Positions 26,803 to 55,548 of a stretch of 64,000 nt of DNA are shown here, piece by piece. Under the pieces are notes generated by a model. The model ran no database searches. It was not told the DNA's origin and saw only the letters and a list, made by a program, of their open reading frames with translations. Source of the stretch: Schmidtea nova (taxonomy: Eukaryota); NCBI GenBank assembly GCA_044892505.1, contig CM097883.1:93868001-93932000 (forward strand). The letters are read 5' to 3'. Positions within the stretch are counted from its first letter, which is position 1. Each line of letters opens with the position of its first letter. Both the position numbers and the translations under genes were made by a program.

Positions 26803-28298
26803 TTGTTGATTTTGTAATAAAATCTCATTGATTGTAGTTTTGTCATTATTGTTCCTATTGTTGTCAATGTGCCTATTGGTTTCAATGTTCCTATTGTTGG
26901 TTGTTGTTGTTGTCGAAGCTTTTGAGTAAGCTGTATTAAAATTGTTTTTTAGAAGGCATATATTGAGTTAAATGATTATGGTGTTTATCATAAAACTCAA
27001 TATATGTCGAAGTATCAAGGGTTTGGCATACGGGGCACAGCATGTAAGTTATATTATTATATTTATAACTATAGTATTTTTCCATAATAACGTCACAGCC
27101 ATTACGGAAAATATTATTGCAAAAAGTTGGATATTTAGAACCTATAATATATATCATTAAAATATATTATTAATATCATTAATATCTTTATAACATAAAA
27201 AATAATAACAAAAGTATTTATTTTTTATATTATGAAAATATGAAAATATTTAAAAATTTGTCATAATAGTTTTCATAATAAATATAATTCATTAAAAAAT
27301 AATTCATGAGAATATTTCATAAGTATAATTCATAAGAGTTTTCATTATAAAACATTCTTCTTCATTATCTTCGTAATTTTTCATAATAAATCATTATCCT
27401 TCATTATCTTCGTAATTTTTTTTAAGAATATTTCATATGGATAATTCATTAACAATTAATTCATAAGAATATTTCATAAAATACTTAAAAATTTGTCATA
27501 AAAGTTTTCATTATAAATCAATATACTTCATAAGAATATTTCATATGGATAATTCATTAAATATTTAAAAAAAAATTTGTGATAAAAGTTTACATAAAAG
27601 TTTTCATTATAAAACATTCTTCGTAAATTTTTCATAATAATAAATCATTTTTCATTATCTTCATAATCTTCCTAATTTTCTTTTTTTAAAATTTTTTAAA
27701 TAACTTATTAAAAACTAACATTTTGACTTCTTGCACGCGAGATTGTGCACTGCATTGTTACCGGCATTAGAATAATTCTTAGCATTAGAATTCGTGGCAT
27801 TAGAATAATTCCCAACATTATAATTCGTGGCATTTAAATTAACTGAATAATAATAATAGTAATAGTTTCAAAATTATTATTAAAAGTTACCATTATTTCT
27901 AGTTCGGTTTTCGACAGCAGATATTTGTCCGGAAATATCTAAATTTTGTTGGGCCCACCAATTGGTCTAAAAAGACAAAAATATTGTACTAATTTAAACA
28001 ATAAATACAAATAATAACCACAAAAACATTCAAAAAACCTAAATTAAAAATCAAAATCAAAATAATAAATAATAATTACTAAATTTCCAGCAAAGGAAGA
28101 AAATCAAATTGACACGGGAACGAGCAGTATGGGGGTCTGAAATAAGAAAATTACAAATAAAATCAAATAAAAGTACAATTAATTGGTTAATTACTTGAAA
28201 AAATCGGGACCACCCAGCGACAAATCTGAACCGGAAATTTAAAATGGTTTATATTAAAATAAAATAACAAAATTACTTTGATGGACGGCCTGATCCTG

Positions 28299-28333
28299 AT
28301 TGGTCAATCTGACCAACTGGATCAGTATAAATA
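28299..28333 (+). promoter_or_regulatory. LTR promoter: inverted CCAAT and TATA box
   Basis: ATTGG at 28299-28303 and TATAAATA at 28326-28333; same motifs in the 3' LTR. Confidence 0.6.
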
Positions 28334-29237
28334 CCGATCCAAAAATCATACAGATAACACCTAAAATCTTAGCTACCGAACTGATCTATAACAGTCAGTT
28401 ACATCAACTTTGATACGACAAATATTGTGTAAAATTTCGGAAAACGCTACATCTTGGATTTAAAGAGTAAATTTTGTTGTATTGTATTTGAACTAATTTT
28501 ATGATATGTTTTACATGATTCCCATTTATTTCATTTCATTTAATATAATTTATTACTATTAATTGCTCTATTTTCTTATGCCATTATTTTATGATATGAT
28601 AAATATACTTCCTCAGTAGCTCACGCTGCGAGGGAGCAAGCCGTAAATGTGGGATTTCACCGTTCCACAAGATGGTGAGCAGAGTTTTATTGGTATTTTT
28701 ATTTAATTTTTAACTTTACGGTAGAGTTGTGCAGGGACAAGGACACGGGTAAAATTAGTAGACAGTGTTTAACATTAATTAATTAACATTCAATCAGACA
28801 GGAGAGAATAAACTACAGTACTAATTATCATGTCAACTAAGTCGATTTCGCATATGCACACGATTTTTTTTGAATCCACATAGCTGATCAAAATAATGTC
28901 CGGACACACCGAGACGATTTCGACATTTCAACGATAGTTTCAATTAAGATATAAATAACAACATAATCAGATCGACACTACTGATTGAATAAGTAAAACC
29001 GTAACCTGATCGCTGTAAATAGCGCAGGTGATAATATGTAAATTTTCAATAAACGTATCCCGATCGCTGTATATAGTGACGGTGTTAATTGAATAGCTTA
29101 GAAAATTATTTTTTTTGTTCCTCCTTTTCATATTTTTTTTTGTTTTGTTGATCAACGAGAGGAACACATTTCATCAGGTCTTACCAAAATTTGGGGATTA
29201 GTCACAGTAAATTTTATTAGCATTATTATTCTCTCAG

Positions 29238-29738
29238 ATGAAATCAACGATACTGGATGAATTTCTAACAACTCAACGTCATGTGGCACGGGTCGAAAAT
29301 CCTCTAATCCGGACGCAACGGAAGAAATTGAAGTCGCTTCCACAGGAACTTCTCAGAACGCTAAATGCGTTAATGTATAAATGGAGACGGGAACTAGGAA
29401 AGAAATGTCCGTTTTCGATTTGGGCCGGTGGATTAGATACCATCATATATCGTGGAGGCCCCGGATGGGAAATTCAGGACAAAAGAGACCGGGAGACGAC
29501 AGCTCCATTCATCATAGTGGTGACAGACCGCGAAGGAAATCCAACGACAGTGATCCATTGGGGATATGTCTCACCGCTCAAGTTGCTTCACTTTGGGTTG
29601 ATTCCGAACCACTTACCGAAAACGTGCCATGGACGCCCCAAACTAAACTGTTCGATGGCTCACATCCGACGAGATCCAGTCAATCACGGGTTGCATATTA
29701 CCCCCGTTCACGGCCTCAAGCGAAGCGTTTTCCACTAA
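29238..29738 (+). CDS. LTR-ORF1, 166-aa protein of unknown function
   Basis: ATG-initiated ORF in a GC-balanced island, directly after an acceptor-like TTATTCTCTCAG; identical in the 3' LTR. Confidence 0.5.
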   Translation: MKSTILDEFLTTQRHVARVENPLIRTQRKKLKSLPQELLRTLNALMYKWRRELGKKCPFSIWAGGLDTIIYRGGPGWEIQDKRDRETTAPFIIVVTDREGNPTTVIHWGYVSPLKLLHFGLIPNHLPKTCHGRPKLNCSMAHIRRDPVNHGLHITPVHGLKRSVFH

Positions 29739-29904
29739 ACATTATATTCACATTTGTATGAACTAAACTATTTCCATAAATTAAATGGTATTGATCTGTG
29801 TTTTGCCTGTTCTTAGTTAAATTTATTTCTATTTATTTAATCATATAATTTTTACACTCGACGGATAATATTAATCGTTGGTAACATAATGGCTGCATCA
29901 TAAA

Positions 29905-30513
29905 ATGGGTTTGTTATTTAGTATGACGGAAACTAGCCAACAGCGAGAATTGGATAAGGCGTGGAGAATCCGCCGAGCCTTAGAAAAGGAGCTAAATCAG
30001 GAAAAAGCATTACGAGCCAAGGCAGAAGCTCAGATTCAGTATTTACGGACCAGCTGGTTCGCCCCAGCCCGTATGAAGGAGCAGATGAGTCGGACAGAAA
30101 GGGCTCAAAAGACAGCTGACGATTATCGCACCGAATGGGAAGCAACAAAAATTGAGTTGCGCCGATGTCTCCATTCGGTGACGACTTCATTTATCGAGTC
30201 CGAATTGAAAGCACAAATCCGACCTATCACCTACCAGAAATGGGTAGGAGAACAGAAAGTGGCCTGCTCGGTCAGTACGGACACCGATGGGCTCGAGGCA
30301 ACAACAGTGCAGAGTCGGGTGGAAACCACCACTGTACTAAACCCCGTCGAAAAAACGAACAAGCGAAAACGAATCGGCTCCAAGCGCCGTCGCCAAAGAA
30401 AGCTGTTTTCTCAACAGTTGCAGACACAAGTAACCCCTATGGCAGAAATGTCGGAAGCCGAGTGGTTATCCGAGATATTCCCTCCTGAAGGAATTTTCAA
30501 AGAATTTCTGTAG
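29905..30513 (+). CDS. LTR-ORF2, 202-aa coiled-coil protein with Arg/Lys-rich NLS-like motif
   Basis: Heptad-like N-terminus and KRKRIGSKRRRQRK motif; a protein-level homologue in the solo LTR at 12022-12480 supports coding function. Confidence 0.7.
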   Translation: MGLLFSMTETSQQRELDKAWRIRRALEKELNQEKALRAKAEAQIQYLRTSWFAPARMKEQMSRTERAQKTADDYRTEWEATKIELRRCLHSVTTSFIESELKAQIRPITYQKWVGEQKVACSVSTDTDGLEATTVQSRVETTTVLNPVEKTNKRKRIGSKRRRQRKLFSQQLQTQVTPMAEMSEAEWLSEIFPPEGIFKEFL

Positions 30514-31006
30514 CAGATAGAATCATAATATGATGTCAGATTTTGGAGTTAATTAAATCTTTGCTCGTTTTTTTTTGTGTTGTTGATTCCTAGGTATTTC
30601 TTTCGATTACATAATTCATATAATTAAATTTAAATTACACGTCACACAAACGAAAGGAGTAGCGATAAAGGATTTAAATATTATCAAATTTGTAGTTTCG
30701 TTTTGCTTGTTTTTTTTTTGTTTTTATGGTAAATACATAGCCTCACACGCACGAAATAGAACAATAATTGCGTAAGTCCTTCTACGGCCGCGTGAACCCG
30801 TAAACATAAAGGGGGAGTAGTCCTAGCAATAGTGCTCACCTGCCCCTCATTGTTTAACCACCCTGCGCATCACCAACTTGGTTATCAAGGGAAATAATCA
30901 AGGGCGCTCGAGTGTAGCTTACGATTATTTATGCATGATCATGGATGGGAGATCCCTGGCAATCATTAGAATGTTTACTACACCGTCCATGAACCCAGCA
31001 TAAATT

Positions 31007-31024
31007 TGGGGGCTCAGCCGGGAT
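31007..31024 (+). other. Primer-binding site, tRNA-Pro type
   Basis: TGGGGGCTCAGCCGGGAT, 16/18 identical to the canonical MLV tRNA-Pro PBS TGGGGGCTCGTCCGGGAT; 6 nt after the LTR end. Confidence 0.85.
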
Positions 31025-31339
31025 CAACTTCGTTTTATCGAAAAAATGTGAATGCAAAATCTGCAGAGAAGTTTAAAGTGCTCGTGTCGTGTGAATAAAT
31101 TTAATAAAAACAGAAAATTTGTAATTAAATCTAAATTATGTACAAAAATAAACAACAAACACAACAGCAAATAAAAGTAAAATTATAAAAATCGAATGCA
31201 TGCATAAATAATTTGTCGGGACGATAATTTTCGGAAACACGGGGAGAGTAAATAAATACTAAAAGATGCAAAACGAAACATATTACTACTTTAAATAAAT
31301 ATTAAAAGACACAAAACGAGATATATTACTACATTAAAA

Positions 31340-31843
31340 ATGATAAAAACAACAAAGTTAAAACGATTATTTATTCAGCAAATGGAGGAAAAACTGAAAG
31401 AAATCGAAGAATTTCTCAACACAGAAAACGAAACATTAGCAACAATTGGCAAGAAAATAAACCGATTTAGAGAAATTGAATTTCAAGAACCCACAACACA
31501 GACCGAGGAAACAGATGAATTAATAAAGATAACAGAAAGAACAAGTAAAATCGACATAAAAACCCGCTACAAATGGTACCGAGCACGACTAGAGAATGCG
31601 GAGCTAAACATTAGATGCAGACAAATAGAACAACAATTAACCCCAACATACAAGCGAGGGAGGGCGCAAGGGGTAGAAGCAGCGAAAAAATACCGACAGT
31701 GCTATATATGTGAAAACAACGAGATACAAATTATGTTTTTACCTTGCGGACATTTCCGTTTTTGTAAGATCTGTGCCAACAAGCGTGACCGGTGTCCGAT
31801 GTGCAACTTTACTGTGAATGAAAAAATTATAGTTTATTTGTAA
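31340..31843 (+). CDS. Coiled-coil plus C-terminal IAP/MDM2-type C3HC4 RING protein (putative E3 ligase)
   Basis: CYICENNEIQIMFLPCGHFRFCKICANKRDRCPMCNFTVNEKIIVYL at the extreme C-terminus; no BIR repeat seen. Confidence 0.85.
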   Translation: MIKTTKLKRLFIQQMEEKLKEIEEFLNTENETLATIGKKINRFREIEFQEPTTQTEETDELIKITERTSKIDIKTRYKWYRARLENAELNIRCRQIEQQLTPTYKRGRAQGVEAAKKYRQCYICENNEIQIMFLPCGHFRFCKICANKRDRCPMCNFTVNEKIIVYL

Positions 31844-32567: not shown

Positions 32568-35500
32568 TTGAGAAAAGGAGCAAAGATTGTCGTAGTAAAG
32601 CCAACGGAAAAGAAAGTCGGCAGCAATATTAACAAAAAAGACAAAACTAGTACTACAACAAAAACAGTAAAAAAGCAGAAAGCCGGCAAAGATAACAACA
32701 AGAACCCACAAGGGAGTAAAGCGAGAAAAATAATAAGAGATAAATCGATTATCGAAAACGATAAATTGTCAGTAGTAAGCAACAGCTCAAGTAACAAAGA
32801 AAACCAAGCAGAACCCAAGGAGAACCAAACAAGTGAAATTGAAATCGACGAAACTAACAGCGATAATATCAAAGAAATAGAACCCGAGATAGAACAAGAA
32901 GGAGAAATCGACGAAACTAACAACGATAATATCGAAGAAGTAGAAAACGAGGTAGAACCAGAGGCAGAAATCAACGAGAGTGATAACGAAAGTATAATAT
33001 CGGATAACGAAATAATAAGAGAAACTGAAAGCGATTCAAGCTCGAGTGAAACAGAAGACGAACATAACAACGAACTAGAAACAAGAGGAAACGAAAGTAA
33101 AATAACTCAAGACAGCGGAATTGAAATGGGTGAACCAAGAGAAGAAATAAAGGATAAATTTTCAGGAGAACCGTTTAACGGAGATGCGAGTAAATTAGAA
33201 ACTTTTCTAAAGGAATTTGGCATATTTGTGGAAGTATGCAAGTGGAAAGCGGAAACAACAGTAAGCAGAATTCAGTTATATTTAAAAGATAGTGCATTGG
33301 ATTTATATTTGGAAGCGAAAAATAGTACCAATCCACCTGCAAATTGGACAGCGATAAAGGATTTTTTCCAACAAACATTTGGAATAAATAAAGTGCTAAG
33401 CGAGGCATTCATAGAATTTTCAATGAGGAAACAAAAGATGAATGAATCTAATGCGGTATACGCGAGTGAACTGAAAAAATTAGCAAAATCGGTATTCAAG
33501 GATGGAGGTCCAATAAACGAGGAGTTAATGGCAGCTATCTTCATAGGAGGACTAAGAAGACCCGACATAAGAGCGCAAGTGGGATGCCAAGGATGCAAGA
33601 CCATTGATCAAGCGTTAGAAACAGCTAACAGATTCGAATTGCATATGATAGGAAGTGAGGGCAGAATTTATTTAGCCATGGACACAGCACAAACCGAACC
33701 AGAGGTAAATCTCAACAATCACATTCCAAATTCGCAACAATTAAACCGACCACCCCCTCAACGAAGGAATGAAGGAAATAAAGTGCAGAACTTTGGAAAC
33801 CAAAACAATTACAACCCTCAAGGACAAACAAGACAATGTAAAACATGTGGAAAATTGGGACACTGGCAACAAGAATGCTATCAAAATTTGAATTGCGGAA
33901 AATGTGGAGTTAAAGGACACTCGGAGAGTAGATGTTCTACGATAATCTGTTTTAATTGTGGACGACCTGGTCACTACTCAAGAAATTGCGGACAAAAAAG
34001 TAATCAGCGAGGAAACTGGCAGAGTAATGGGAACCGACAAAACTACGGAAATCAAACAAATACCGTGAACCGACAAGATTATGGAAACCAACAAGTCAAT
34101 AATAACAATAGTCAGAACAAAACTACCACCAAAGAAATACATTTGATGCAAGAAGTTCAAAGATTGACGGAACTTATAAACAATACGACGAGAGGAAATC
34201 CGCAAACCAATCAACAGCAAATTAGCATGATGAGAAAAATAGAAAGCGAAAACGAACGATTGAATCGAGAAAGTCAAGCACGACACGCTCAGGAATGGGC
34301 AAGAATACAAAGAGAGGATGAACAAAAACAGCAAGAAAGAGAGCGACAACCTCTAAGAATTAATATGCTAAGAGCAACAAACCAAACAGACACTCGCGAG
34401 AAAGAAACCACACTGGAAATGAATTCGATAGACCCGAATCCAGCCGACAACGAAAGTCGAAAAGAGACAGTACAAAAAGATGAAGAAGTAGAAAAAGAAA
34501 TAAAAAAGGAAGGGGAAACTGAGATAAACCAGGAAGAGAGAAGGGAGATTTGGAAAAGAGGAATGATGGTAATCATGCCCAACAAATCCGTGTTTAGATT
34601 CCAGTATAACGTAAAAGAAGAAGTGGGAATATTATTCAACAAAGTAAACCAGATGGTTCCAGGAGTAACGAAACTGCCCAGAGAAGCGTTTCTACAAATA
34701 GAAGGTGCGCCAAAAGTAAGGTTGGAATTAACGGATATATGGGAAAACTTGGGAGTAGTAGAAACAAAAAGAAACGTGATGATTATTAAAGAAATAGAAC
34801 CAGAAGAAATTCCACCACCAATACGTCACGAAACCCGAATCAGGCGAATATTTGAAGGGAAAATGATAAGAAGACGTTTAAAAGAGATAGACGAGTTGGG
34901 AAAGAAAATGAAAAAAGTCGAAGTAATAGAGGACAAAAATGAACAAACACCAGAAATTAGCAAAAACAAAACAAAACCAACGGAGAATATACAAGGGGAA
35001 ACGAACCAAACAGCACATATTAATATGTTAAGAAATACCACCAGAGAGTTCTCCGATGAAGAAGAAGATAGTGATATCAGTAGCCTAGCAGGAGACATAT
35101 TAAATGAATCCGAAGACGAAAATAAAGAGAGAGAAGTAATAAAGACCTCAGAACCTATACAGATAAAAGTAGATGAAATCCAGAAATTACTAGATAACTC
35201 GCTAGAAGTAATATATAACGAAGAGTTCATGGACAAGAAACAATACCGGAAATTCATGAAAGCATTATTACAAATGAACTACAAAGAATGGTTACAAGAC
35301 CGGGAAGTAGACATGTTAAACCGATACGTAGGGAAATTAATAGAGGAACCACTCCTCAATTACACCATCTCAATAATAATAAATACATCAACATCAAGAA
35401 TCTGGATCAAAACTCCATTCACAGACGATATCTACAGATGGGTAGAGGACAGGCTAGGGAGCTCATATAAAAACAAATTCATTTTCTCGCAGAATAGACT

Positions 35501-38500
35501 CGTAAAGAAAAGAACACACCTAGTAGAAACCGGTATATGGCCAGGAGAAATAACCCTGTTATCAATATGTGATGAAAAGGAAGAAGAGAACCTACAAGAA
35601 GTTGCAAAGGAAGCAAACACGTGTTTCGAAAGGAGAATAAAACCTCGGTTAGAATACGAGAAAGAACGAGTCTTACGAAAGAATCTAAATTCCCTGATAG
35701 AACAAATCATACCACAAGTCAAAAAACATAGAAAAGAGTTAATGAGAAGCGAATACGAGAAATTGAAACGATGTATTGAGTGCATACGTGACACAAGTCA
35801 CACGAGATGGTCACAGATCTCACACGACAAATTAATCGCAAAAATGGGAAAAACAATGTTTAGACAAGGGAAAATAACGGATCTAAAAATTTCAGTAGAA
35901 TTGCCTAATGAAGACACCAAAGAAATTGAAGTGGTAGCGGATTGCACCATTAAAGAATTAATAAATGTCATTAACGAGACACTAGTGCAAAGAGAACCAG
36001 AAGACGAATGGGAAGACGACATAATCATACAATACAACGAACATGTATTATGGGATCACGATGAGAGACGACTATATAAAATCGGTATATGGGATAATCA
36101 CCAAACCATCCACGTTATCAGAATGGACGATACACCCAGAGAAACTGCTAAAGATGAGAAAAGAGAACGGGAACGACGGAAAGAAGTTGTGCGCAAATTA
36201 CAACAAATAGTAGAAATTTATCGAAATTGGCGAATTTGGCCAGAGTGGGAAAATGTATTAGAAGAACTCAATCTCAACAGACGAATACGAACACCCGTAG
36301 AAAAACAATGGAACGAGAAAGGAAAATGTTGGGAACCAAAAGAAGGGGAATATGAAGAAGAATATGAAAGAGGAATGGAAGATGACTGCGAACCAGAAAT
36401 GAGAAGGGTTTGCATGGTGACAAGGAAAGCTACGCCAATAGACCTAGATGGACCAGAAACAGCGGCTATATGGTTAGAAAAGGAAAAGCAAAAAACGGAA
36501 GAATTTGTCGAAATATTAAAAACTAATGCGCACGGTAAGAGAAAAGTAATAAAAGGTCTCGCAGATTTTTTCGTGGTTAATGGAGAAGATATAACATGCT
36601 TGCGTAAAGTGGCAAAAGCAATCGCAGAATATAAAAGAGTCAACGAATGGTGTCCGGAACAACTAGACCACGTAATTAGGAAATGGAGGAATCAAGAATT
36701 CTCGCAAGAAATTCCACAAAAAGTACATTTAAGAATAATATACCCAAACAAGGATAAGGAAGAATTTTGGGTAGGAATAGCAGAAAAAATTCGAGATATT
36801 AAAAAGAAATTGAGATACGAACCACCATTCCATTTACAACACCAAGGACGAACATTAGATAACAGTTTGGAAATTGGAATAACGCCAGCACAACTAGATC
36901 TCATGAATACCTTAACAGTGGAAGCAATAGCGGGTCAACCATTGAAACGTAAAGAAGAAAACCATAAACCACACGGAAGTATAAGTACGCCGAGCCCGAT
37001 GAAATCAGTATTAACGCCAGGAACAAGTTCAAGACGATCTGAGACAACACCCAGAGGGAATAGAGAAAGGACTCCACCACAACCATATGACGTGGACGAA
37101 ATATTAACAGACAGCGACGACATGATAGAAGAGCTAACCGAATTAACAAAGGAAAAAGACGGCAACATTTTCGAAAGGATACAAGAACTACCTACGACAA
37201 TACAAGTAACTAACACCGGAGAAACAGAAGTCGAACAAGAGATAATAATAGAAGAAGTAAACGATTTGACAGAAGATGAAATAAGAGGAGTGAATGTCGA
37301 AAATGTACAATTAACCCAGGAAATGGAAAGATGGTTAGAAGAAAGAGCTAATGAACCAAGAGATGTCACAGAAGAAACCGGACGAGCAACAAGGTTTGTG
37401 GAAACAGGTACAGGAATGGATAGACGACCTCGAGGTAGACCCAAGACAGATCCAGCAAATATAGTCATCAGAAATAAGGATGAAAAGAGACAAGATCAAT
37501 GGGAATTATGCTTAAGGAAACTAAATAAAATTGCGGAGATAAAAGAAAAAGAAACAACACCAATATGTCAAGGGGAGGAATGGATATCGAAAACAATAAT
37601 GGAAATATTGGCAATAATTGATCCAGAATTGAGAAAATACTGGCGGATAACTGAGATAAGCGAAAAGGCAAAGTCATTACACAGCGCAATTGCACCCATC
37701 TTACCAGAATTCATAAAAGAAAAGACGAAATCAAATCACTTAGACTGGCAAGGAACCACTATGTTAATAAAGAAATTGACAGAAGGAGCGGAAACGGATA
37801 ACAAATATGTAATAGCCATTGCATATACGATCTACAATCTGTTGACACTGAGTAGAGGTCGACCAAAACCCACTGCATTAGAGAGACATATAAAAAATAC
37901 CGCAAAGATTATAGCTAGAGAAATAGAACCTTACGTCATTAACAAAGGAGGATGGGAAACATTTATAAAAACTAACCAGAAGAAAACACAAGCCAAGAAT
38001 ATGAAAAAGAAATTCGAAAAAATATTGGAAGAGTTAGAAAAGGAACAAACAGGAACAGGAAACGCAAAGTCATCAATGAATCTGAGTTCTATAATAATGA
38101 TGATGTTGATATGGATGATTAGCACCGATAGCGCAACAGCATTCGAAGTGTTTGATTGCGACCAAATGAAGTTAGGAGAAAAGTATTCATTGAGAGGTAC
38201 GGAGCAATGCAAAGATGCAACTCCAGTAGAGTTGCAAAAGATTAAAAAGGAACAATGGTACCACGTGTATCAAGAAGCAGAACTCATAAAGACAATGGTG
38301 AATGAATGTAAGGTGCAGAAAACGAGATTCGCATTCTACTGCGGGAGAGGACATTATTCAGCAATTGTCATGCCAGGAACGGAAAGAGAACCAATCGTGT
38401 TACAAGGAGAAGACTGCGAAGCACTGTTTAAACATGGAGAAGTAACAACAAGAGACAAAATCAAGATAAGAGGAAAGCCAGGAATGATGCTGCAACAAAC

Positions 38501-39005
38501 CTACTATGTAGCAGGACGGATTACGGGAGGAGAAGGATATTGTCAAGGAGAAACCTACCCGATGTTCGGAACACTCGCAACCAACTTAGTGGTGATGGAT
38601 ACGTATATAGTCGAACTAAAAAGCTATGAAGCATTCTTCGAACCAACAACGGGAGAAATGAAAACGTTATCCATGTGTAAAATCGACAGGAGCATGTGTC
38701 AAACGGGAATGTCAACATTAGTATACAAACCAAAGGTGAACGAATGTCAATTACAACTGCTACAAGGAGCACAGTTCGACGAAATTCAAGGAAAAACGTT
38801 CCAGGAAGAAGACGATGACGACAAAGCTAGAGCAAAGCATCTCAAGGAAGCTTTGGAGAATAAAAGACAACTGAAACCAGATCAGCGAGAAAAAAGGATA
38901 GAGATGAGAGCCACACCAACAGTGTTGATAACCACAAATCAGGATGTGGGAATGAGATTCATAAAAGGGAAAGCAACCCTTAAGTGTAGTACAACGGTAT
39001 ACTAA
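32568..39005 (+). CDS. gag: Gag - accessory domains - N-terminal part of envelope glycoprotein polyprotein (first in-frame ATG at 33126)
   Basis: Gag capsid-like EPFNGDASKLETFLKEF...; three CX2CX4HX4C knuckles (33837-33989); ubiquitin-like segments; PRGRPK AT-hook; Bcl-2-like helical domain ending NKGGWETF; internal signal peptide (38076-38141) followed by the FEVFDC glycoprotein start. Confidence 0.9.
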   Translation: MRKGAKIVVVKPTEKKVGSNINKKDKTSTTTKTVKKQKAGKDNNKNPQGSKARKIIRDKSIIENDKLSVVSNSSSNKENQAEPKENQTSEIEIDETNSDNIKEIEPEIEQEGEIDETNNDNIEEVENEVEPEAEINESDNESIISDNEIIRETESDSSSSETEDEHNNELETRGNESKITQDSGIEMGEPREEIKDKFSGEPFNGDASKLETFLKEFGIFVEVCKWKAETTVSRIQLYLKDSALDLYLEAKNSTNPPANWTAIKDFFQQTFGINKVLSEAFIEFSMRKQKMNESNAVYASELKKLAKSVFKDGGPINEELMAAIFIGGLRRPDIRAQVGCQGCKTIDQALETANRFELHMIGSEGRIYLAMDTAQTEPEVNLNNHIPNSQQLNRPPPQRRNEGNKVQNFGNQNNYNPQGQTRQCKTCGKLGHWQQECYQNLNCGKCGVKGHSESRCSTIICFNCGRPGHYSRNCGQKSNQRGNWQSNGNRQNYGNQTNTVNRQDYGNQQVNNNNSQNKTTTKEIHLMQEVQRLTELINNTTRGNPQTNQQQISMMRKIESENERLNRESQARHAQEWARIQREDEQKQQERERQPLRINMLRATNQTDTREKETTLEMNSIDPNPADNESRKETVQKDEEVEKEIKKEGETEINQEERREIWKRGMMVIMPNKSVFRFQYNVKEEVGILFNKVNQMVPGVTKLPREAFLQIEGAPKVRLELTDIWENLGVVETKRNVMIIKEIEPEEIPPPIRHETRIRRIFEGKMIRRRLKEIDELGKKMKKVEVIEDKNEQTPEISKNKTKPTENIQGETNQTAHINMLRNTTREFSDEEEDSDISSLAGDILNESEDENKEREVIKTSEPIQIKVDEIQKLLDNSLEVIYNEEFMDKKQYRKFMKALLQMNYKEWLQDREVDMLNRYVGKLIEEPLLNYTISIIINTSTSRIWIKTPFTDDIYRWVEDRLGSSYKNKFIFSQNRLVKKRTHLVETGIWPGEITLLSICDEKEEENLQEVAKEANTCFERRIKPRLEYEKERVLRKNLNSLIEQIIPQVKKHRKELMRSEYEKLKRCIECIRDTSHTRWSQISHDKLIAKMGKTMFRQGKITDLKISVELPNEDTKEIEVVADCTIKELINVINETLVQREPEDEWEDDIIIQYNEHVLWDHDERRLYKIGIWDNHQTIHVIRMDDTPRETAKDEKRERERRKEVVRKLQQIVEIYRNWRIWPEWENVLEELNLNRRIRTPVEKQWNEKGKCWEPKEGEYEEEYERGMEDDCEPEMRRVCMVTRKATPIDLDGPETAAIWLEKEKQKTEEFVEILKTNAHGKRKVIKGLADFFVVNGEDITCLRKVAKAIAEYKRVNEWCPEQLDHVIRKWRNQEFSQEIPQKVHLRIIYPNKDKEEFWVGIAEKIRDIKKKLRYEPPFHLQHQGRTLDNSLEIGITPAQLDLMNTLTVEAIAGQPLKRKEENHKPHGSISTPSPMKSVLTPGTSSRRSETTPRGNRERTPPQPYDVDEILTDSDDMIEELTELTKEKDGNIFERIQELPTTIQVTNTGETEVEQEIIIEEVNDLTEDEIRGVNVENVQLTQEMERWLEERANEPRDVTEETGRATRFVETGTGMDRRPRGRPKTDPANIVIRNKDEKRQDQWELCLRKLNKIAEIKEKETTPICQGEEWISKTIMEILAIIDPELRKYWRITEISEKAKSLHSAIAPILPEFIKEKTKSNHLDWQGTTMLIKKLTEGAETDNKYVIAIAYTIYNLLTLSRGRPKPTALERHIKNTAKIIAREIEPYVINKGGWETFIKTNQKKTQAKNMKKKFEKILEELEKEQTGTGNAKSSMNLSSIIMMMLIWMISTDSATAFEVFDCDQMKLGEKYSLRGTEQCKDATPVELQKIKKEQWYHVYQEAELIKTMVNECKVQKTRFAFYCGRGHYSAIVMPGTEREPIVLQGEDCEALFKHGEVTTRDKIKIRGKPGMMLQQTYYVAGRITGGEGYCQGETYPMFGTLATNLVVMDTYIVELKSYEAFFEPTTGEMKTLSMCKIDRSMCQTGMSTLVYKPKVNECQLQLLQGAQFDEIQGKTFQEEDDDDKARAKHLKEALENKRQLKPDQREKRIEMRATPTVLITTNQDVGMRFIKGKATLKCSTTVY

Positions 39006-40460
39006 ACGAATTATCCAGGAATATATGTGTCAAAACAAGAAGTGCCAAATGCGAAACCCAAAATCGACACAATGGATATCAAACTATACCTGTATGTGAA
39101 TAATAAAATGGATTTCCTATTCCATAGAGGACAAGCCTCATTACAAAAAGTGTACTACGATCTGATAAACAATGATTGTATACTGAATCGAGAAATATTA
39201 AAGACAAAGTTGGCCGTAGCGATTACGAATCCAGATAGCGCGATGCCATTATTACCACTGAGAGAAGGACATTTCGGAAGAGTGGTTGGAGAAGCCATGT
39301 ATGTATACATTTGTGAAAAGACACACGCGCCGCTAGCAGCAACAACGCAATTGAAACCTGGAACCTGTACAAATGAGTTAGAAATCGATTATAAAGGAAA
39401 AGTACGATACGTTCAACCGGTGACGAGAATCATCAATCCACCAGGGTTTGAACCAAATCCATTCAACTGTAGTAATGCGTACGGACCGCTTTATCAGAAA
39501 CCAGATGGTAAATGGGTTATGTTCCCAGGAAGATCCGAAGTGATAGCACCAAGAGAATTCGAGCTAATGCAGTTGTCAAAGGATAGGCAATTCAGCGACG
39601 TAGATGTCTCAAACAACGGAATATATAGTCCAAAGGATTTAGAAGCAGCAAGGCAGAATATATTATTCCCTGCGAGAAGAGAAGCATTACTGTCGAATAT
39701 CGTAACGATAACGGGAGGAACGGATTATCGAGAAGGACCGAATTATGAACTATTGTTGTCACCAGCACATTTCAAGAAAGCCACAGAAAATATGATGAAA
39801 GCAATGTGGGGAAGATTTCTGATATTCGGACAAATGATGGCCGGAATACTGGGGGTCATATTAATAATCCAAATCGTCAGAGTGATAATAACGCAAATGC
39901 TCGCGTGTTTTGACATCTACAAGAGAGAAAAGAAAGTGAATTGGAAAATGGTAGTAGGGTTTTTACCATTCCTCGCGAAGACGATGGTGTTGCATGGACA
40001 CTCAAAGGACATACATCGAATAAAGAGATTGTTGAAGATACTCGCAAAAATGAAGGGAACAGATGAAGAAGTAGGACGAAAATTTAAAAAGATAATGAAT
40101 GACGAACAAGCAAGACAACAGCTCAAGAGAGAAAGAAAAGGTTTATGGGAGAGGATGAAAGGATATAAAACCCAAAATGATTCGAGTGACGACGATGATG
40201 ACGATGACGACTATAAGGGAGGACAAGTCTATAAGAACCAAGCACCCCAATACATTGAAAAGAATCCAGCCGACGCGTGGAAATGTTACGCACCTCCACC
40301 AACCATGTATCAAGAACCACTACAAGGAGGAAGAACGACAACAATGCAAATGATGCCAATGACAAATGTATACCCCATGATACCAGAAGATTATAAAATG
40401 AGAAGATGTAGAAGCGTAGATCCACAAGGAGATACACACACGATCGCAGTAATGTCATAA
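39006..40460 (+). CDS. env: C-terminal half of chuvirus-like (gB-type, class III) envelope glycoprotein, in frame after a single TAA
   Basis: LYVNNKMDFL...YYDLINNDCILNREIL, GRVVGEAMYVYIC, CTNELEI...VQPVTRII, TM FLIFGQMMAGILGVILII and a cytoplasmic tail; the frame is continuous from 39006. Confidence 0.85.
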   Translation, partial: TNYPGIYVSKQEVPNAKPKIDTMDIKLYLYVNNKMDFLFHRGQASLQKVYYDLINNDCILNREILKTKLAVAITNPDSAMPLLPLREGHFGRVVGEAMYVYICEKTHAPLAATTQLKPGTCTNELEIDYKGKVRYVQPVTRIINPPGFEPNPFNCSNAYGPLYQKPDGKWVMFPGRSEVIAPREFELMQLSKDRQFSDVDVSNNGIYSPKDLEAARQNILFPARREALLSNIVTITGGTDYREGPNYELLLSPAHFKKATENMMKAMWGRFLIFGQMMAGILGVILIIQIVRVIITQMLACFDIYKREKKVNWKMVVGFLPFLAKTMVLHGHSKDIHRIKRLLKILAKMKGTDEEVGRKFKKIMNDEQARQQLKRERKGLWERMKGYKTQNDSSDDDDDDDDYKGGQVYKNQAPQYIEKNPADAWKCYAPPPTMYQEPLQGGRTTTMQMMPMTNVYPMIPEDYKMRRCRSVDPQGDTHTIAVMS

Positions 40461-40517
40461 AACACAGGTCCAGTATTAACCACGACAATAGAGATTAACG
40501 GAAGAGAAATCGAAGCA

Positions 40518-43500
40518 ATGATCGACACTGGAGCAAATATTTCCGCCATCGATATCAAATGGATACCACAAGAGCAAAGACGGGAAATAGAAAGGACAAA
40601 CGTCCATGTAATTGCATGTAGCAAAGAAGTTGTAGAAGTAGCAGGAAGATGGTGGGTAAAAATACGCCATTTAAATACAGAAATCGATACGTACGTAGCA
40701 GTCATACCAGCATTAAGCGTACCTTGCATTATCGGAACAGATTTGATGCCAGCGTTATTTAAAGAAATCGTAATCGATCTCGGAACAATGAGATTAAAAG
40801 ATCGCACCGGACAAATATGCGCAATAGAAGCCAAAGTGACAAGCTCAAAGCAAATGATAATACCCGCAAGAAAGGAAAAAATATGTTACGTAAAAATAGA
40901 TCCGACAATCCAAGGCGATATGATTTTCGAACCAAGTAAGAGATTCGAGAAAAGAAAAGCGTTGCCAATGGCAAGAGGACTAGTCAACATAAACGATAAT
41001 GGGGAAATCCCAATAAACGTAGTAAATTTCGACGAGGAGGATAAAATAATCTACGAAAACGAAAGACTAGGTAAACTAACCCCAATGATGGATATCGAAA
41101 TACCAATAGAAGGGGCAGAGAAAGATAAAGAACCAACCTGGAATATTGATAGTGAATTATTAAATGAGGACCAAAAGAAGCAGCTAGAAAAACTTCTGAT
41201 AGAGTATAAGGACATATTTGCAGCATCCGATTTAGATCTAGGAACATGTGATGTCACACTACATACGATACCATTAACAGATGACACACCAATTGCATTA
41301 AGGCCGTACAAATTAGCAGAAGCACAGAAAGCAGTAGCAGAAGCAGAAGTGAAGAAAATGTTGGATGCGGAAGTAATCGAACCAAGTTGCTCACCCTGGC
41401 AATTTCCAGTGGTAATGGTAAAGAAGAAAGACGGAACACAGAGATTCTGCATAGATTATCGAAGGTTGAATACGGTAACAAAACGAGACACTTACCCATT
41501 ACCGGACATCAACGAAATGCTACTAACACTACAAGGAGCAGCATATTTTACGTCGTTAGATCTAAAAAGCGGATATTGGCAAATAAAAATGAAGGAAGAA
41601 GATAAAGAGAAAACTGCCTTTACCATCGGTAGAGACCTATATCAATTTCGAAAGATGCCATTTGGATTAACGAACGCACCAGCATCATTTCAGAGATGCA
41701 TGAATTTCGTCACCCATGGAATAAAGCAGTGTATGGTCTACATAGACGACTTATTAATTTATTCTAGCACGTTTGAACAACACATACAAGATATTCGAGA
41801 TGTATTCGTTAGACTTAGACAATGGAAGTTAAAACTCAAGCCATCCAAGTGTGATTGGGCGAAAGAAAAGGTTACATTTTTAGGACATATAGTGTCAGCA
41901 AAAGGAAAAGAACCGGATCCTAGAAATATCGACAAAGTAAAAGAATGCCCAGTACCAAAAACAATAACCCAAATACAAGAATTTCTCGGACTATGTGGAT
42001 ATTATAGAAAGTTTATAAAAGATTACGCCGGAATAGCAAAACCTATACAAGAGCTGGTAAAGAAAGATGTATCATTCATATGGGGAGACGAACAGCAAAC
42101 AGCTTTCGAGACATTAAGAGATAAACTGATAACCGCACCCATATTGGTACACCCAGACTTCAAGAAGCCATTCCTACTTGCAACGGATGCAAGCGGATAT
42201 GCAGCAGGAGCAGTATTAGGACAATACGATGATGAAGGAAAAGAACGGGTAATCGGATATTATAGCCGGACATTCAAAAAGCATGAGAAAAACTACTCAG
42301 TAACCGAGCGAGAAGCATTAGCGATTATATTAGCGATTAAACATTTTAAATATTTATTATGGGGACACATCATCTGCATAACAACAGATCACCAACCGCT
42401 TGTATGGTTAGGACAGCATAAGGAAACATCCAGTAGATTAATGCGATGGGCAATGCAGTTACAGGAGTACTCACCAGACATAAAATTTAAATCAGGAAGA
42501 GCGAATGCGAATGCAGACTGTATGTCAAGACTGACATTCCCGGAATTAACCGACCCGGATGTACAACGAATTTGCGTATTAATAGCAGAAGATTTGGATT
42601 TTAGTGAATTAAAGAAAGATCAGCAGGAAGACAAAGAATTAGGACAGATCATAGAATTCCTAACATCTCGAAACATGGAAGTATTCAAAGAGAACAAGGA
42701 ATTAAAGGAACATATAGGAAAATATCAACATCGCTACATAATAAATAAAGGATGGTTGTTAATACAAGACGGGGAAAAGAGATTGATGTGCTTACCGGAA
42801 AACAGAAGGAAAGAGATAATGATCCAATACCATGATGGGAAATTAGGAGGGCATATGTCCGAGAAAAAGACAATAAATCGTATGAGACAAAAATATTATT
42901 GGCGAACAATGGAAGAAGATATCAAAGGATGGATTAAAAATTGTCTAACTTGCGCAACCGGAAAGGATAGTGGGAAGAAATGGAAAAACCTACTACAACC
43001 AATGCCGATACCAGCAGAGCCAATGACAACTATAGCAATGGACGTAATAGGGCCATTACCAGAAAGTCTAAACGGAAATATTTATATATTGGTAATAACG
43101 GATTACCTGACAAAATTCCCGGAAGCATTTGCCATGCAAGATCAAAAAGCAAAAACCGTAGCAAAAATTTTGGTAGAAGAAATATGTTGCAGATACGGAA
43201 CTCCAAAACAAATACTCACAGACCAAGGAACTAACTTTATGAGTGAGTTATTAGACGAGGTGACAAACTATTTCAGAATAGCAAAATTGAGTACTTCACC
43301 ATATCACCCACACACGAATGGACAAACAGAGAGATTCAACGGCACATTGATTAGAATGTTATCCAACTATGTCAGCAGACACCAAACTGATTGGGACGAA
43401 TACATAAAATTATGTTTAATGGCATACCGAATGTCGATACATGCAGCAACAAAACTAAGCCCGTTTCAACTTATGTATGGAAGAGAATGCAACATGCCCA

Positions 43501-46478
43501 TAGATTTAGAGTATCAACCACCATTATCGCAATATATGGAAGACGACGACTACGTAACCAAATTCAAAGAAAGAATGCAGGAAATATGGAAAACGGCAGA
43601 ACTCAACATTAAATTTTATCAGGAAAGTTATAAGGATTTACACGACCAGAAGAAAAATGTTAAAGCAAACGACCTAAAACCAGGAGATTGGGTGATAATA
43701 GAAACTCCCGAAATAATACCAGGAACGGTTAAGAAACTCCAAAGACCTGGAAGAGGACCTTATGAAATTATATACAAAAAGGACAATAATGTCAAAGTTA
43801 AGCTAGTAAATCGACCGTTAATACGATCCATATATGTAAACACATGCAGATGTAAGAAAGTGCCTAAAACAATAACTACAACACCAGAAAATCGAATAAT
43901 AACCAGATCACAAACAGCCAGGATAAATATGCTCAGAGCAAACACAACCGAAGACGACAAAGCAGAAACAAGGCATAAGGAAATCAGAAATAAAGAAATC
44001 GTATTGAAAGCAAGAGAGGTAATGGGAAGATGGCATGCCAGAGACGAAGCAAACATATTAAAAGATATACGATGGATAATTAGCGACTACGCACAAGGAC
44101 TACCAACGAAACCAATTATTTCTGAGTTGTTAGGAAAAATCCCTGAAATACTTTTATTAGAGGATGTAGGGGGACAACCCGCCTTACACAATGCGGTAAA
44201 GTGTGGAAACATAGAAAGAGCAACGGAATTCCTAAAAATTGCAAAAGAAACCAATCAACACCTAGGTTTCGGGAATCGCGAACAAGAAACCCCACTAATG
44301 ATAGCGGCAATTTACCAAGCAAACAAGGAAATGATAGACCTTTTGATAAAGGCCCGTTTCAACTGGACAGAACGAGATAGGGAAGATAAAACAGTCTTAA
44401 ATCACGTAATATGGAGTTCACACCAACTAATGCTGAAACATATAATCGCAAACGCCACATGGGAAATAGACGAATTAATAAAAGGAGACATTATCAAAGA
44501 AGCAATCAAAATTGGTAAGTGCAACACGATCCGTAAGTTAATCAAATGGAAACGACCAGAAGATGATACATGGGTTTTAGACATAAACGAAGTATACAGC
44601 GAAGGACAAAACGCACTGTTAAGATACCTTGTGAAATTTACTTGCGATCAAAAGACATTACTAACCTTATTAGACAGAGGAAACATAAACATCACAAAGA
44701 ATGAAGAAGAACACAAATTCGATAAAGAAAAAGGGGCCTTATTCAACAAGATTAGGAAATGGTGTGCGAAACCACTTGATAAACTAATAACATACAAAGA
44801 CATAAACAATTTTAACGAGAAATACCAGACGATAGTAAATGAGTATGATGAACTAGTAAAAATCCTAAACCACCCCGAAAAATGCAAACAGGTTTTGGAG
44901 AAAAAAGAAAGAGAAAGTAACAAGAAACTCACACCACTCTTCAAAGCAGAAGCACCATACCAAGCTAGACTAGATGCGATACAAGAAAAAGCAAAAGAAT
45001 TGTTACCGGAATTCGAGAATAGTAAACATGCACTGGAAATACTCGGCGCATTAGTTGAAAAAGTACACGCATACGCAAAAGGAACATACAATAGTAACGA
45101 CATAACGACTATAAAAAAGGAGATGCCAGTAACATTTTTACTACCAAAGGACGGAATAATGCCCATACATAGAGCTTTACGAAATGGCAAAGATAGAAAA
45201 GTAATGGAAATCGCAAGAGTAATGTTAAATTGCGGAAGCAACATGAATATGATAGACGAGAAAGGAGATACACTTATGGTATTTGCAGCAAGGGCTAAAA
45301 CGAAAACAAAGGTGTTGGAAGAACTATACAAAGCAGGTGCAGGACTTACAGGAAAGACAGATAAAGATAATTCAATTTTGGATGTAGCATTACTAACACA
45401 TAATTGGGAAATGGTCAACTTCATTAAAACAATCGCAAATCAGGAAGAAATAGATTACCTAACTGATACGGTTAAGAAACCCAGTGTACTAACAATGATG
45501 CATAATGTCGAACTAACAGAAGCAATACTTACGTGGATAAATCCGAATACTAACGAACCAGCATTCAGGATTAATGAGTTTACAGAACATAACCAAAACT
45601 GGTGTATAAGAAGTGCCTTAATAACGTATAAATGGCCAGAGATATTGAAGATGTTTATGGAAAGAAAGGATATAAGAATCACAAACAATCCGAAAGAAGA
45701 GAAATACACAGGCAAATGGAAAGAATTAATGAAGACATACATCAACAACTGGATCAAGGCCAAAAAGGAAATTGTGGAATATAAATCCACCAACAAAGTA
45801 ATACCGGAGCACTTAGAAACACAAGAATTTGAGGCAAGTAATCTAACGACATTAGCATATGCAAAATTGATAGAAGAAATCAATGTCGAGGACGACATTT
45901 TCAACGAGCCAGGGGGAGATGACAATACAGATAGTGACGACGGTAACAACTCAGAAAATTCAAACGATCACGAACCACCCGATAAAGAGGAAAACGAGAA
46001 AAAAGACAAGAAACGAGTCAAAGAAGAAAAGAAAAATGAAGACGAAAAACAAAGAAATGAAGAGGGAGAACAAAGAGACCAAGGAATTAAAAATGACACC
46101 CAAAGAACAGGTTATAAATCAACCATAAAACCATTCTTCAAACCAGAATTACTATTATTAACAGTGATTTTAACGTTAATTAACCCAAGTCAAGGAATGA
46201 CATGTGAAGAAAGGGCAATAATACAAATAAAAAACGCAAAAGGAATCGAACGAGTATGTTGGTCGAAAAAGGACAAAATCACGGAACAAAATAGCCCGAT
46301 GGATTGCAGAATCTCAAAACACGAGCAAGAGATCATAGAGATCAATGACTTAGATCTAAATACCTGGTACAAAATATGCACCGTTAGAAAACAAAAGCAT
46401 CCAAGATCACACAACACAATCGCATGTGCAAAATACCAAACACCTAAAGCAGCCATGACAATACAACAGTCACCCTAA
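40518..46478 (+). CDS. pol: Pol polyprotein (PR-RT-RNase H-IN) extended by ankyrin repeats and a signal peptide/FN3-like module; frame open from 40461
   Basis: IDTGANISAI protease; CIDYRRLN, MPFGLTNAP and YIDD (41739-41750) RT; TDASG...TDHQPL RNase H; HHCC, TDQGTNF, TERFN and GPY integrase; GQPALHNAV, ETPLMIAA, GIMPIHRAL and GDTLMVFAA ankyrin motifs. Confidence 0.95.
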   Translation: MIDTGANISAIDIKWIPQEQRREIERTNVHVIACSKEVVEVAGRWWVKIRHLNTEIDTYVAVIPALSVPCIIGTDLMPALFKEIVIDLGTMRLKDRTGQICAIEAKVTSSKQMIIPARKEKICYVKIDPTIQGDMIFEPSKRFEKRKALPMARGLVNINDNGEIPINVVNFDEEDKIIYENERLGKLTPMMDIEIPIEGAEKDKEPTWNIDSELLNEDQKKQLEKLLIEYKDIFAASDLDLGTCDVTLHTIPLTDDTPIALRPYKLAEAQKAVAEAEVKKMLDAEVIEPSCSPWQFPVVMVKKKDGTQRFCIDYRRLNTVTKRDTYPLPDINEMLLTLQGAAYFTSLDLKSGYWQIKMKEEDKEKTAFTIGRDLYQFRKMPFGLTNAPASFQRCMNFVTHGIKQCMVYIDDLLIYSSTFEQHIQDIRDVFVRLRQWKLKLKPSKCDWAKEKVTFLGHIVSAKGKEPDPRNIDKVKECPVPKTITQIQEFLGLCGYYRKFIKDYAGIAKPIQELVKKDVSFIWGDEQQTAFETLRDKLITAPILVHPDFKKPFLLATDASGYAAGAVLGQYDDEGKERVIGYYSRTFKKHEKNYSVTEREALAIILAIKHFKYLLWGHIICITTDHQPLVWLGQHKETSSRLMRWAMQLQEYSPDIKFKSGRANANADCMSRLTFPELTDPDVQRICVLIAEDLDFSELKKDQQEDKELGQIIEFLTSRNMEVFKENKELKEHIGKYQHRYIINKGWLLIQDGEKRLMCLPENRRKEIMIQYHDGKLGGHMSEKKTINRMRQKYYWRTMEEDIKGWIKNCLTCATGKDSGKKWKNLLQPMPIPAEPMTTIAMDVIGPLPESLNGNIYILVITDYLTKFPEAFAMQDQKAKTVAKILVEEICCRYGTPKQILTDQGTNFMSELLDEVTNYFRIAKLSTSPYHPHTNGQTERFNGTLIRMLSNYVSRHQTDWDEYIKLCLMAYRMSIHAATKLSPFQLMYGRECNMPIDLEYQPPLSQYMEDDDYVTKFKERMQEIWKTAELNIKFYQESYKDLHDQKKNVKANDLKPGDWVIIETPEIIPGTVKKLQRPGRGPYEIIYKKDNNVKVKLVNRPLIRSIYVNTCRCKKVPKTITTTPENRIITRSQTARINMLRANTTEDDKAETRHKEIRNKEIVLKAREVMGRWHARDEANILKDIRWIISDYAQGLPTKPIISELLGKIPEILLLEDVGGQPALHNAVKCGNIERATEFLKIAKETNQHLGFGNREQETPLMIAAIYQANKEMIDLLIKARFNWTERDREDKTVLNHVIWSSHQLMLKHIIANATWEIDELIKGDIIKEAIKIGKCNTIRKLIKWKRPEDDTWVLDINEVYSEGQNALLRYLVKFTCDQKTLLTLLDRGNINITKNEEEHKFDKEKGALFNKIRKWCAKPLDKLITYKDINNFNEKYQTIVNEYDELVKILNHPEKCKQVLEKKERESNKKLTPLFKAEAPYQARLDAIQEKAKELLPEFENSKHALEILGALVEKVHAYAKGTYNSNDITTIKKEMPVTFLLPKDGIMPIHRALRNGKDRKVMEIARVMLNCGSNMNMIDEKGDTLMVFAARAKTKTKVLEELYKAGAGLTGKTDKDNSILDVALLTHNWEMVNFIKTIANQEEIDYLTDTVKKPSVLTMMHNVELTEAILTWINPNTNEPAFRINEFTEHNQNWCIRSALITYKWPEILKMFMERKDIRITNNPKEEKYTGKWKELMKTYINNWIKAKKEIVEYKSTNKVIPEHLETQEFEASNLTTLAYAKLIEEINVEDDIFNEPGGDDNTDSDDGNNSENSNDHEPPDKEENEKKDKKRVKEEKKNEDEKQRNEEGEQRDQGIKNDTQRTGYKSTIKPFFKPELLLLTVILTLINPSQGMTCEERAIIQIKNAKGIERVCWSKKDKITEQNSPMDCRISKHEQEIIEINDLDLNTWYKICTVRKQKHPRSHNTIACAKYQTPKAAMTIQQSP

Positions 46479-46628
46479 GGAGATTACATCATCGGAAAAT
46501 GTGGAAGAACAGAGACACAGGAAACAGAAAACAAAAAATCCCAGGCAGCAGATAAGCAAACAACACCAACCCTACGAATTACAATAGAGAGGCCCGAAAC
46601 AAGAGTTGCCACAAACGAAACCGAAAGA

Positions 46629-50089: not shown

Positions 50090-50181
50090 ATAAATAAAGC
50101 GGAAAACTGTAAATATGTAAAAATAAAAACAAGAAAAACCAAAAATAAATGACAGGTCGAATGTATATATTATTGTAGAAA

Positions 50182-54881: not shown

Positions 54882-55382
54882 ATGAAATCAACGATACTGG
54901 ATGAATTTCTAACAACTCAACGTCATGTGGCACGGGTCGAAAATCCTCTAATCCGGACGCAACGGAAGAAATTGAAGTCGCTTCCACAGGAACTTCTCAG
55001 AACGCTAAATGCGTTAATGTATAAATGGAGACGGGAACTAGGAAAGAAATGTCCGTTTTCGATTTGGGCCGGTGGATTAGATACCATCATATATCGTGGA
55101 GGCCCCGGATGGGAAATTCAGGACAAAAGAGACCGGGAGACGACAGCTCCATTCATCATAGTGGTGACAGACCGCGAAGGAAATCCAACGACAGTGATCC
55201 ATTGGGGATATGTCTCACCGCTCAAGTTGCTTCACTTTGGGTTGATTCCGAACCACTTACCGAAAACGTGCCATGGACGCCCCAAACTAAACTGTTCGAT
55301 GGCTCACATCCGACGAGATCCAGTCAATCACGGGTTGCATATTACCCCCGTTCACGGCCTCAAGCGAAGCGTTTTCCACTAA
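54882..55382 (+). CDS. LTR-ORF1 (3' LTR copy)
   Basis: Translation identical to 29238-29738. Confidence 0.5.
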   Translation: MKSTILDEFLTTQRHVARVENPLIRTQRKKLKSLPQELLRTLNALMYKWRRELGKKCPFSIWAGGLDTIIYRGGPGWEIQDKRDRETTAPFIIVVTDREGNPTTVIHWGYVSPLKLLHFGLIPNHLPKTCHGRPKLNCSMAHIRRDPVNHGLHITPVHGLKRSVFH

Positions 55383-55548
55383 ACATTATATTCACATTTG
55401 TATGAACTAAACTATTTCCATAAATTAAATGGTATTGATCTGTGTTTTGCCTGTTCTTAGTTAAATTTATTTCTATTTATTTAATCATATAATTTTTACA
55501 CTCGACGGATAATATTAATCGTTGGTAACATAATGGCTGCATCATAAA

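Follow-up and report, generated by a model that had tools for sequence, protein, structure and literature searches.

We found that a giant gypsy-type LTR retroelement in the window (the whole 64,000-nt stretch of DNA analyzed here) carries, between its Gag and Env regions, a segment that almost certainly adopts an eight-helix Bcl-2 fold around helix 5, as judged from a structural model (positions 37560 to 37976). BCL2 cargo ahead of env has already been published for the Burro elements of planarians, and the discovery as such is not new; the window domain is a strongly diverged addition to this Burro-type cargo. What is added here is fold-level support, a fixed pre-Env place in seven families and subfamilies, loss of the NWGR motif throughout, and a probable single capture. 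A 140-residue construct makes the question testable, namely, whether a retrotransposon manipulates apoptosis in a regenerating animal.

The element is 28.7 kb long with LTRs of 3.05 kb, and its features are listed in Table 1. A single Gag-Env-Pol frame spans positions 32535 to 49607, with stops at 39003, 40458, and 46476 in the window copy, and the Bcl-2-fold domain lies in frame within the 2,156-aa open frame from 32535 to 39005, at aa 1676 to 1814; the RING and TRAF ORFs are separate from the polyprotein frame. An earlier note on this DNA had described the domain as embedded in Gag. It does share the polyprotein frame; however, it lies about 1,200 aa past the zinc knuckles and thus belongs to the Gag-Env-Pol polyprotein, not to Gag proper. 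The placement just before the Env signal segment, also proposed there, was borne out by the PF24664 Env match together with hydropathy, the domain ending about 40 residues ahead of the hydrophobic segment that opens Env. A motif scan returned seven protease-site-like words in the polyprotein frame. The ubiquitin-like domain (UBL) was matched equally weakly in two of four sister fragments.

Table 1. Coordinates of the retroelement and of its Bcl-2-fold domain in the window
Feature	Position	Strand	Basis or remark
5' LTR	27947..31000	+	TG...CA ends; preceded by target-site copy ATTT
RING-finger accessory ORF	31295..31843	+	PF13920, E 1.2e-11
Gag capsid region and CCHC knuckles	33276..33989	+	PF03732, E 1.8e-4, under cut-off; PF00098
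Weak ubiquitin-like domain (UBL)	35886..36095	+	PF18036, E 0.055, under cut-off
RVCMV, final protease-site-like word ahead of the Bcl-2-fold domain	36405..36419	+	Motif scan; putative cleavage
Extra helix N-terminal to the Bcl-2-fold domain	37500..37545	+	BH3-like in families B to D by eye, weaker in the window's family
Bcl-2-fold domain, helices 1 to 8	37560..37976	+	AF2 model, Foldseek, VIA
BH1-equivalent turn, TDNK replacing NWGR	37794..37805	+	Profile-profile alignment
BH2 motif YVINKGGWETF	37932..37964	+	Six-frame motif scan; PDB sequence match; GGW invariance
Charged linker past BH2, least conserved part	37980..38069	+	40% aa identity with subfamily A2
Hydrophobic segment, likely Env signal peptide; would double as Bcl-2 tail anchor	38076..38141	+	Hydropathy; putative cleavage site
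Env, gB-type/Monjiviricetes fusion glycoprotein	38142..39923	+	PF24664, E 7.6e-19 and 2.8e-45; stop at 39003 in the window copy
PR-RT-RNase H-IN plus ankyrin repeats, same frame	40461..46478	+	Pfam-type domain matches
Frame end: weak FN3-like match, three hydrophobic segments	46479..49607	+	Domain matches, hydropathy
TRAF-like accessory ORF (RING, zf-TRAF, MATH)	50179..51558	+	Domain matches
3' LTR	53592..56643	+	TG...CA ends; followed by ATTT; 1 mismatch in 3,052 aligned bases with the 5' LTR

The domain proved to have relatives in other element families of the same genome. Families B to F were found by a PF00452 genome search, whose matches comprised short-frame Bcl-2 genes and many long-frame sequences scoring close to the cut-off, followed by a search for the env family; subfamily A2, with about 74% DNA identity to the window's subfamily A1, came from an Env-based search. 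The domains of families B to F are only 15 to 25% identical to that of the window. Nevertheless, the same order is seen in each of the seven families and subfamilies: GGW closes the domain, a charged linker comes next, and the start of Env comes after a hydrophobic helix that begins 30 to 48 residues past GGW. Purifying selection has kept the domain at this pre-Env place in all families and subfamilies examined.

The domain segment includes LIKKLTEGAETDNKYVIAIAY and terminates in EPYVINKGGWETFIK. Among the 127,996 translated positions of the window in six frames, the BH2-like word was the sole pattern match and GGW occurred nowhere else; the motifs stand where the earlier note had placed them. 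Searches with single sequences were less informative. PF00452 (gathering cut-off, 31.4 bits) did not match the window domain alone or an A2 copy, phmmer against the PDB gave a match to Bcl-xL over BH2 only (E 1.8), and the ESM Atlas, three word-index searches, and a search of 1.84 billion representatives returned no recognizable relatives with the single sequence; thus, no relative from outside the source genome was obtained. The Pfam check that the earlier note had proposed therefore fails for the window domain by itself and succeeds for its sister families. PF00452 matched 9 of the 13 rows of alignment A1 (best E 1.9e-8), the window row being without a match, and these nine rows would be those of families B to D. 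The E values for families E and F were 9e-5 and 6e-4, and some family B and C copies narrowly passed the gathering cut-off.

It was through the sister families that sequence homology over BH1 to BH2 was found. A first sister-profile scan, run on whole ORFs, missed the domain, and a chunked scan with two more families detected it: with the window's family left out, the profile of families B to F matched only the domain segment among 1,074 window chunks (E 1e-8). The real domain scored 33.1 bits, compared to 10.3 bits for the best of 1,991 scored shuffles; the best of 2,000 shuffles that kept the BH2 tail reached 18.7 bits, and the real sequence without BH2 reached 17.7 bits. Profile-profile alignment with Bcl-2 genes of the same genome (95.9%, E 5.9e-9) covered helices 4 to 8 only. 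Element profiles that included the window row matched Bcl-xL at E 2.5e-8 and 1e-8, the latter alignment again being confined to helices 4 to 8.

An eight-helix Bcl-2 bundle had been named as the outcome on which the earlier proposal would stand or fall, and the AlphaFold model of the 142-aa core, Foldseek, and VIA all agreed on it. The core model, for which, as for the longer construct, the alignment was built from element sequences only, has eight helices with a pLDDT of 81.3 and a pTM of 0.81; three of the five models scored 79 to 81 and two were poor (56 and 50). Adding the upstream helix gave a 176-aa model of low confidence (pLDDT 55, extra helix under 50), and all 40 of the matches listed for it were Bcl-2-family proteins at E 0.015 to 0.07. 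For the core model, all 45 among the PDB matches listed by Foldseek were Bcl-2-family proteins (probability, 1.00; TM, 0.52 to 0.72), and no row of the PDB and viral libraries reached E 0.001, the best being 0.006 and 0.05, respectively. VIA, which re-ranks Foldseek's own matches, placed Bfl-1/A1 and Hydra HyBcl-2-4 at Z 14.4, with an rmsd of 2.4 to 2.6 Å over 132 to 137 residues, and Bak at Z 12.6. Since unrelated helical bundles can attain Z 13 to 14 by arrangement alone, we base the Bcl-2 assignment on fold, whole-domain coverage, and sequence profile taken together. No more than about 2 Z units separate Bak from the top pro-survival matches, in effect a tie, and the ranking reflects PDB content.

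The well-studied viral mimics of Bcl-2 are those of large DNA viruses; among retroelements, the Burro elements are the case that we found in print. In the viral fold library, herpesvirus proteins, adenovirus E1B-19K, and the ASFV vBcl-2 came near the top, with an F1L homologue at rank 47; by Foldseek, the core model is closer to cellular Bcl-2 proteins than to poxviral ones. With the Bcl-2-fold proteins lying at an rmsd of about 2.5 Å, the modelled domain shares eight helices, BH2, and a C-terminal hydrophobic helix. It differs from them in its low identity (12 to 17%), in TDNK for NWGR, in a helix 2 without BH3, in being part of a polyprotein, and in its longer linker to the anchor.

The BH1 motif was placed by profile-profile alignment with the Bcl-2 genes of the same genome, in which TDNK falls on NWGR; hence, BH1 stands at the expected spacing and, as had been noted, without its NWGR. 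The equivalents in the other families read TDSK, DKDK, NRDR (NWDR in one copy), DENR, DKEV, and NREV, such that no element family retains the BH1 glycine, and A to D keep a basic residue. In contrast, all 27 rows of alignment A3, drawn from the seven families and subfamilies, share GGW, Tyr91, and Leu75. Helix 2/3 reads EKAKSLHSAIAPILPEFIKEK, with no BH3 motif in helix 2, and the helix 5-6 hairpin is not hydrophobic (means of 0.38 and −0.6); together these features argue against a pore-forming effector of the Bax/Bak type. Between A1 and A2, conservation was 0.98 for loop 3-4, 0.82 for helix 4, and 0.79 for helix 5, versus 0.54 for helix 6, all from small numbers. The extra N-terminal helix, judged by eye against the BH3 consensus, is BH3-like without Gly-Asp in families B to D and differs in A, E, and F; it could dock in the domain's own groove.

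To place the element domains among Bcl-2 loci, we used a tree of 75 columns with 7 element rows and 10 rows from non-element loci, the latter being putative host Bcl-2 genes. The element domains formed one side of a branch with support of 96/98. Their nearest group was L036, L038, and L050, although the joining branch was weak (78/81) and the branches were long; these three loci also scored highest against the element domains (34, 26, and 25 bits, versus 12 to 23 bits for the others). Of 14 non-element loci, 6, among them L036, have a GT directly after the GGW codons, whereas none of the 7 element rows has it; this pattern fits one capture from a spliced transcript. The branch and the distribution of this GT accord with the captured module of the earlier proposal, and these sequence patterns make a single capture from a host Bcl-2 transcript likely. 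Separately, L036, L038, L042, L050, L056, and L059 are multi-copy, short-frame Bcl-2-like genes, some with stops, that score closest to the element domains.

We counted at least 150 genomic copies of the domain with 95 to 100% identity (150 scored of 989 candidates), and many copies have open frames of 5,640 to 5,690 aa. The stop at 39003 was shared by none of 28 other in-register copies; thus, the polyprotein is normally one frame and the window copy is broken, and programmed read-through of this stop was rejected on the same count. The domain is uninterrupted in 27 of 29 subfamily A1 copies, and one of the 29 is without part of it. One copy, L122, lacks about 1,050 bases corresponding to window positions 36622 to 37670, including the start of the domain. 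The LTRs of the window element differ at a single position, yet the element has three stops and about 95% identity to its sibling copies; it may have inserted recently, from a template that was itself defective.

Against 17 A2 copies (18 were supplied, and one was dropped for two stops), the domain showed 72% identity, with a pN of 0.15 and a saturated pS of 0.78, whereas the next linker showed 40%. Because dS between A1 and A2 is saturated over the domain, no dN/dS is quoted. Mismatches with an A2 copy fell at codon positions 1, 2, and 3 in the numbers 24, 22, and 71. Among 28 A1 copies, chosen on Env, the shared domain variants comprised 55 synonymous and 11 nonsynonymous changes, a ratio of 0.05, compared to 0.11 in the upstream acidic linker and 0.04 in the UBL-like stretch. 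The domain is therefore under purifying selection, which is not specific to it, as most of the polyprotein is constrained too. The Env N terminus (38142 to 38561) had 99% protein identity to the A2 copies L131 to L150, with a pS of 0.36 versus 0.56 to 0.78 upstream; this difference suggests a more recent env exchange between the two subfamilies, and the Env-N ratios are biased by the choice of copies on Env.

The closest known system is that of the planarian Burro elements. As described in the Burro section of PMC6431247 (Arkhipova and Yushenova 2019), these carry a BCL2-like motif preceded by a Ubi2/SUMO-like domain, with env in frame between the motif and PR; the section calls the link to apoptosis worth testing, names Grohme et al. 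2018 as the source of the BCL2 observation, cites that work and Jurka 2007 on the Burro / GYPSM1 elements, and gives the motif alone, with no fold, selection, or mechanism. We call the window element Burro-type by its layout and the published description, and the same layout makes a planarian host probable. Like Burro in that section, it is about 29 kb long, with 3-kb LTRs, a single Gag-Env-Pol frame, and hundreds of copies; its Bcl-2-like domain immediately precedes a mononegavirus-like env in the same frame, and it has a weak ubiquitin-like domain upstream, ankyrin repeats, and MATH/TRAF cargo. Unlike Burro, it has TRAF as a separate downstream ORF, it gave no BIR or dUTPase match in the ORFs scanned, and the domain of its family is too diverged for Pfam. 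In the literature searched, which did not extend to Grohme et al. 2018 and the supplements, we found no functional test of the Burro BCL2-like domain.

Gene order and env class are also those of the platyhelminth GAG-ENV-POL errantiviruses with an HSV/gB-type Env treated in PMC13524379, which likewise covers GAG-ENV-POL elements of nematodes and bryozoans; in that source, "bcl" is absent from the main text and occurs in the supplement solely in an unrelated assembly name. With poxviral M11L and F1L (apoptosis) and A52, B14, and N1 (NF-κB), as presented in sections of PMC3847314 and PMC11209288, the window domain shares a virus-borne fold and eroded BH motifs. Unlike the window domain, those proteins are the products of stand-alone DNA-virus genes, and M11L, F1L, and N1 have seven helices, whereas the window domain keeps helix 7 and BH2. 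PMC11209288 reviews viral Bcl-2 proteins in DNA viruses, and the word retrotransposon is absent from its available text.

An anti-apoptotic role for the domain is plausible. The reading we prefer, at what we regard as an even chance, is that a captured host Bcl-2 domain in a Burro-type Gag-Env-Pol frame would be anchored in the ER via the Env signal segment and would serve as a pro-survival decoy. The element protease would cut at the RVCMV word and signal peptidase before Env; these cuts would leave a product of about 575 aa with the Bcl-2 domain, linker, and hydrophobic helix at its C-terminal end, facing the cytosol on the ER, which would be the layout of a tail-anchored Bcl-2 protein. The domain would bind BH3 helices through a noncanonical groove like that of M11L or F1L, and as a decoy for host death effectors it may delay the death of the particle-making cell. 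In all seven families and subfamilies, the hydrophobic helix past the domain is likely the Env signal segment, which may stay with the Bcl-2 piece as its C-terminal anchor. A crude scan for acceptor-like sites with a nearby ATG found none upstream of the domain within the frame, so joint production with Env is likely. The same scan lent no support to a spliced transcript for the domain alone; it is a weak scan, since it also missed some accessory ORFs.

We count the RING and TRAF cargo elsewhere in the element in favor of the pro-survival decoy. Against it stand the replacement of NWGR and the loss of its glycine in every element family. The arginine-aspartate bridge is described as a hallmark of BH3 binding in the relevant part of PMC5691656, where mouse Boo, with SWSQ at BH1, is said to engage no pro-apoptotic partner; M11L, according to a section of PMC3847314, binds the Bak BH3 without the canonical salt bridge. 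In addition, an ER anchor would hold the domain away from mitochondrial Bax/Bak. A passage of PMC8532177 reports BURRO1 RNA in differentiated planarian cells after smedwi-2 RNAi. By analogy, such cells could be a setting where blocking death pays, as context for Burro rather than for the window family.

A possible but clearly less probable account is that the domain is a nonapoptotic binding scaffold, comparable to vaccinia A52 and B14 or to the NF-κB face of N1, which would dampen innate or stress signaling together with the TRAF, RING, and ankyrin cargo. The loss of NWGR in all families would suit such a scaffold, as would the TRAF and RING ORFs and ankyrin repeats of the same element, and A52 and B14 share the fold and act on NF-κB, not on apoptosis, in the account of PMC3847314. 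However, A52, B14, and N1 are without a membrane anchor in the parts of PMC3847314 and PMC11209288 that deal with them, whereas a hydrophobic helix follows the domain here; the model keeps eight helices and BH2 and is nearer to cellular than to poxviral proteins; and the parts best kept between A1 and A2, in small numbers, are loop 3-4, helix 4, and helix 5 on the groove side.

Rather doubtful is a further reading in which the captured Bcl-2 has become an ER-anchored leader for the envelope protein, the signal helix of Env also acts as the Bcl-2 tail anchor, perhaps being descended from it, and the domain neutralizes Bok-like effectors of the ER or serves as a matrix-like tether. With the signal helix shared in this way, each Env made would leave behind one membrane-bound Bcl-2-fold protein; if true, this would be a new coupling of envelope synthesis to cell-death control in a retroelement.

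A purely structural part, namely, a cytosolic, membrane-proximal bundle on the Env signal anchor that would act like a matrix or as an Env-biogenesis tether to the upstream polyprotein, seems unlikely. The pre-Env place is fixed in all seven families and subfamilies despite their low identity, the acceptor scan points to synthesis with Env, and TRAF, by contrast, lies in the polyprotein or in a separate ORF depending on the element (Burro section of PMC6431247). Nonetheless, the need for a tail anchor accounts equally well for the fixed position, and protease-site-like words lie between Gag and the domain. We consider it very unlikely that the domain is pro-death or membrane-permeabilizing (Bok/Bax-like, or a sensitizer via the extra BH3-like helix) and aids particle release: the BH3-like helix seen by eye ahead of the domain in families B to D and the match to Bak would fit, but a BH3 motif is missing from helix 2, the 5-6 hairpin lacks hydrophobicity, and the extra helix, which has no BH3 Gly-Asp, is different in families A, E, and F. 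That the domain is a functionless relic in a frame kept open between Gag and Env is scarcely credible, despite the degraded BH1, the missing Pfam match for the window's family, and the one copy without part of it, given a pN much lower than pS, the codon-position bias of mismatches, the better conservation than in the next linker, and the invariant GGW, Tyr91, and Leu75.

Several further features of the element and its surroundings were recorded. Upstream of the domain, a second ubiquitin-like stretch was seen by eye at 36690 to 36950, strongly constrained at a ratio of 0.04 and with no ubiquitin-family Pfam match. The acidic linker contains a stretch (37320 to 37425) that is near-identical in protein between A1 and A2 and is possibly a linear motif, and just 5' of the domain lies an AT-hook-like word, RPRGRPK (37425 to 37445), also present in subfamily A2 and family B. 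Past the ankyrin repeats, positions 46131 to 49400 encode four hydrophobic segments and repeated, Cys-containing, weakly FN3-like units, which suggests membrane-bound ectodomains. The TRAF-like and RING ORFs are intronless within the element, and such copies may inflate host TRAF gene counts. Beside the element, on the minus strand at 57844 to 61133, is a second, broken gypsy-type pol with pieces of protease, RT, RNase H, and integrase identified by eye. Finally, a stretch just past the 5' LTR (31007 to 31024) resembles the complement of the 3' end of tRNA-Pro and may be the primer-binding site.
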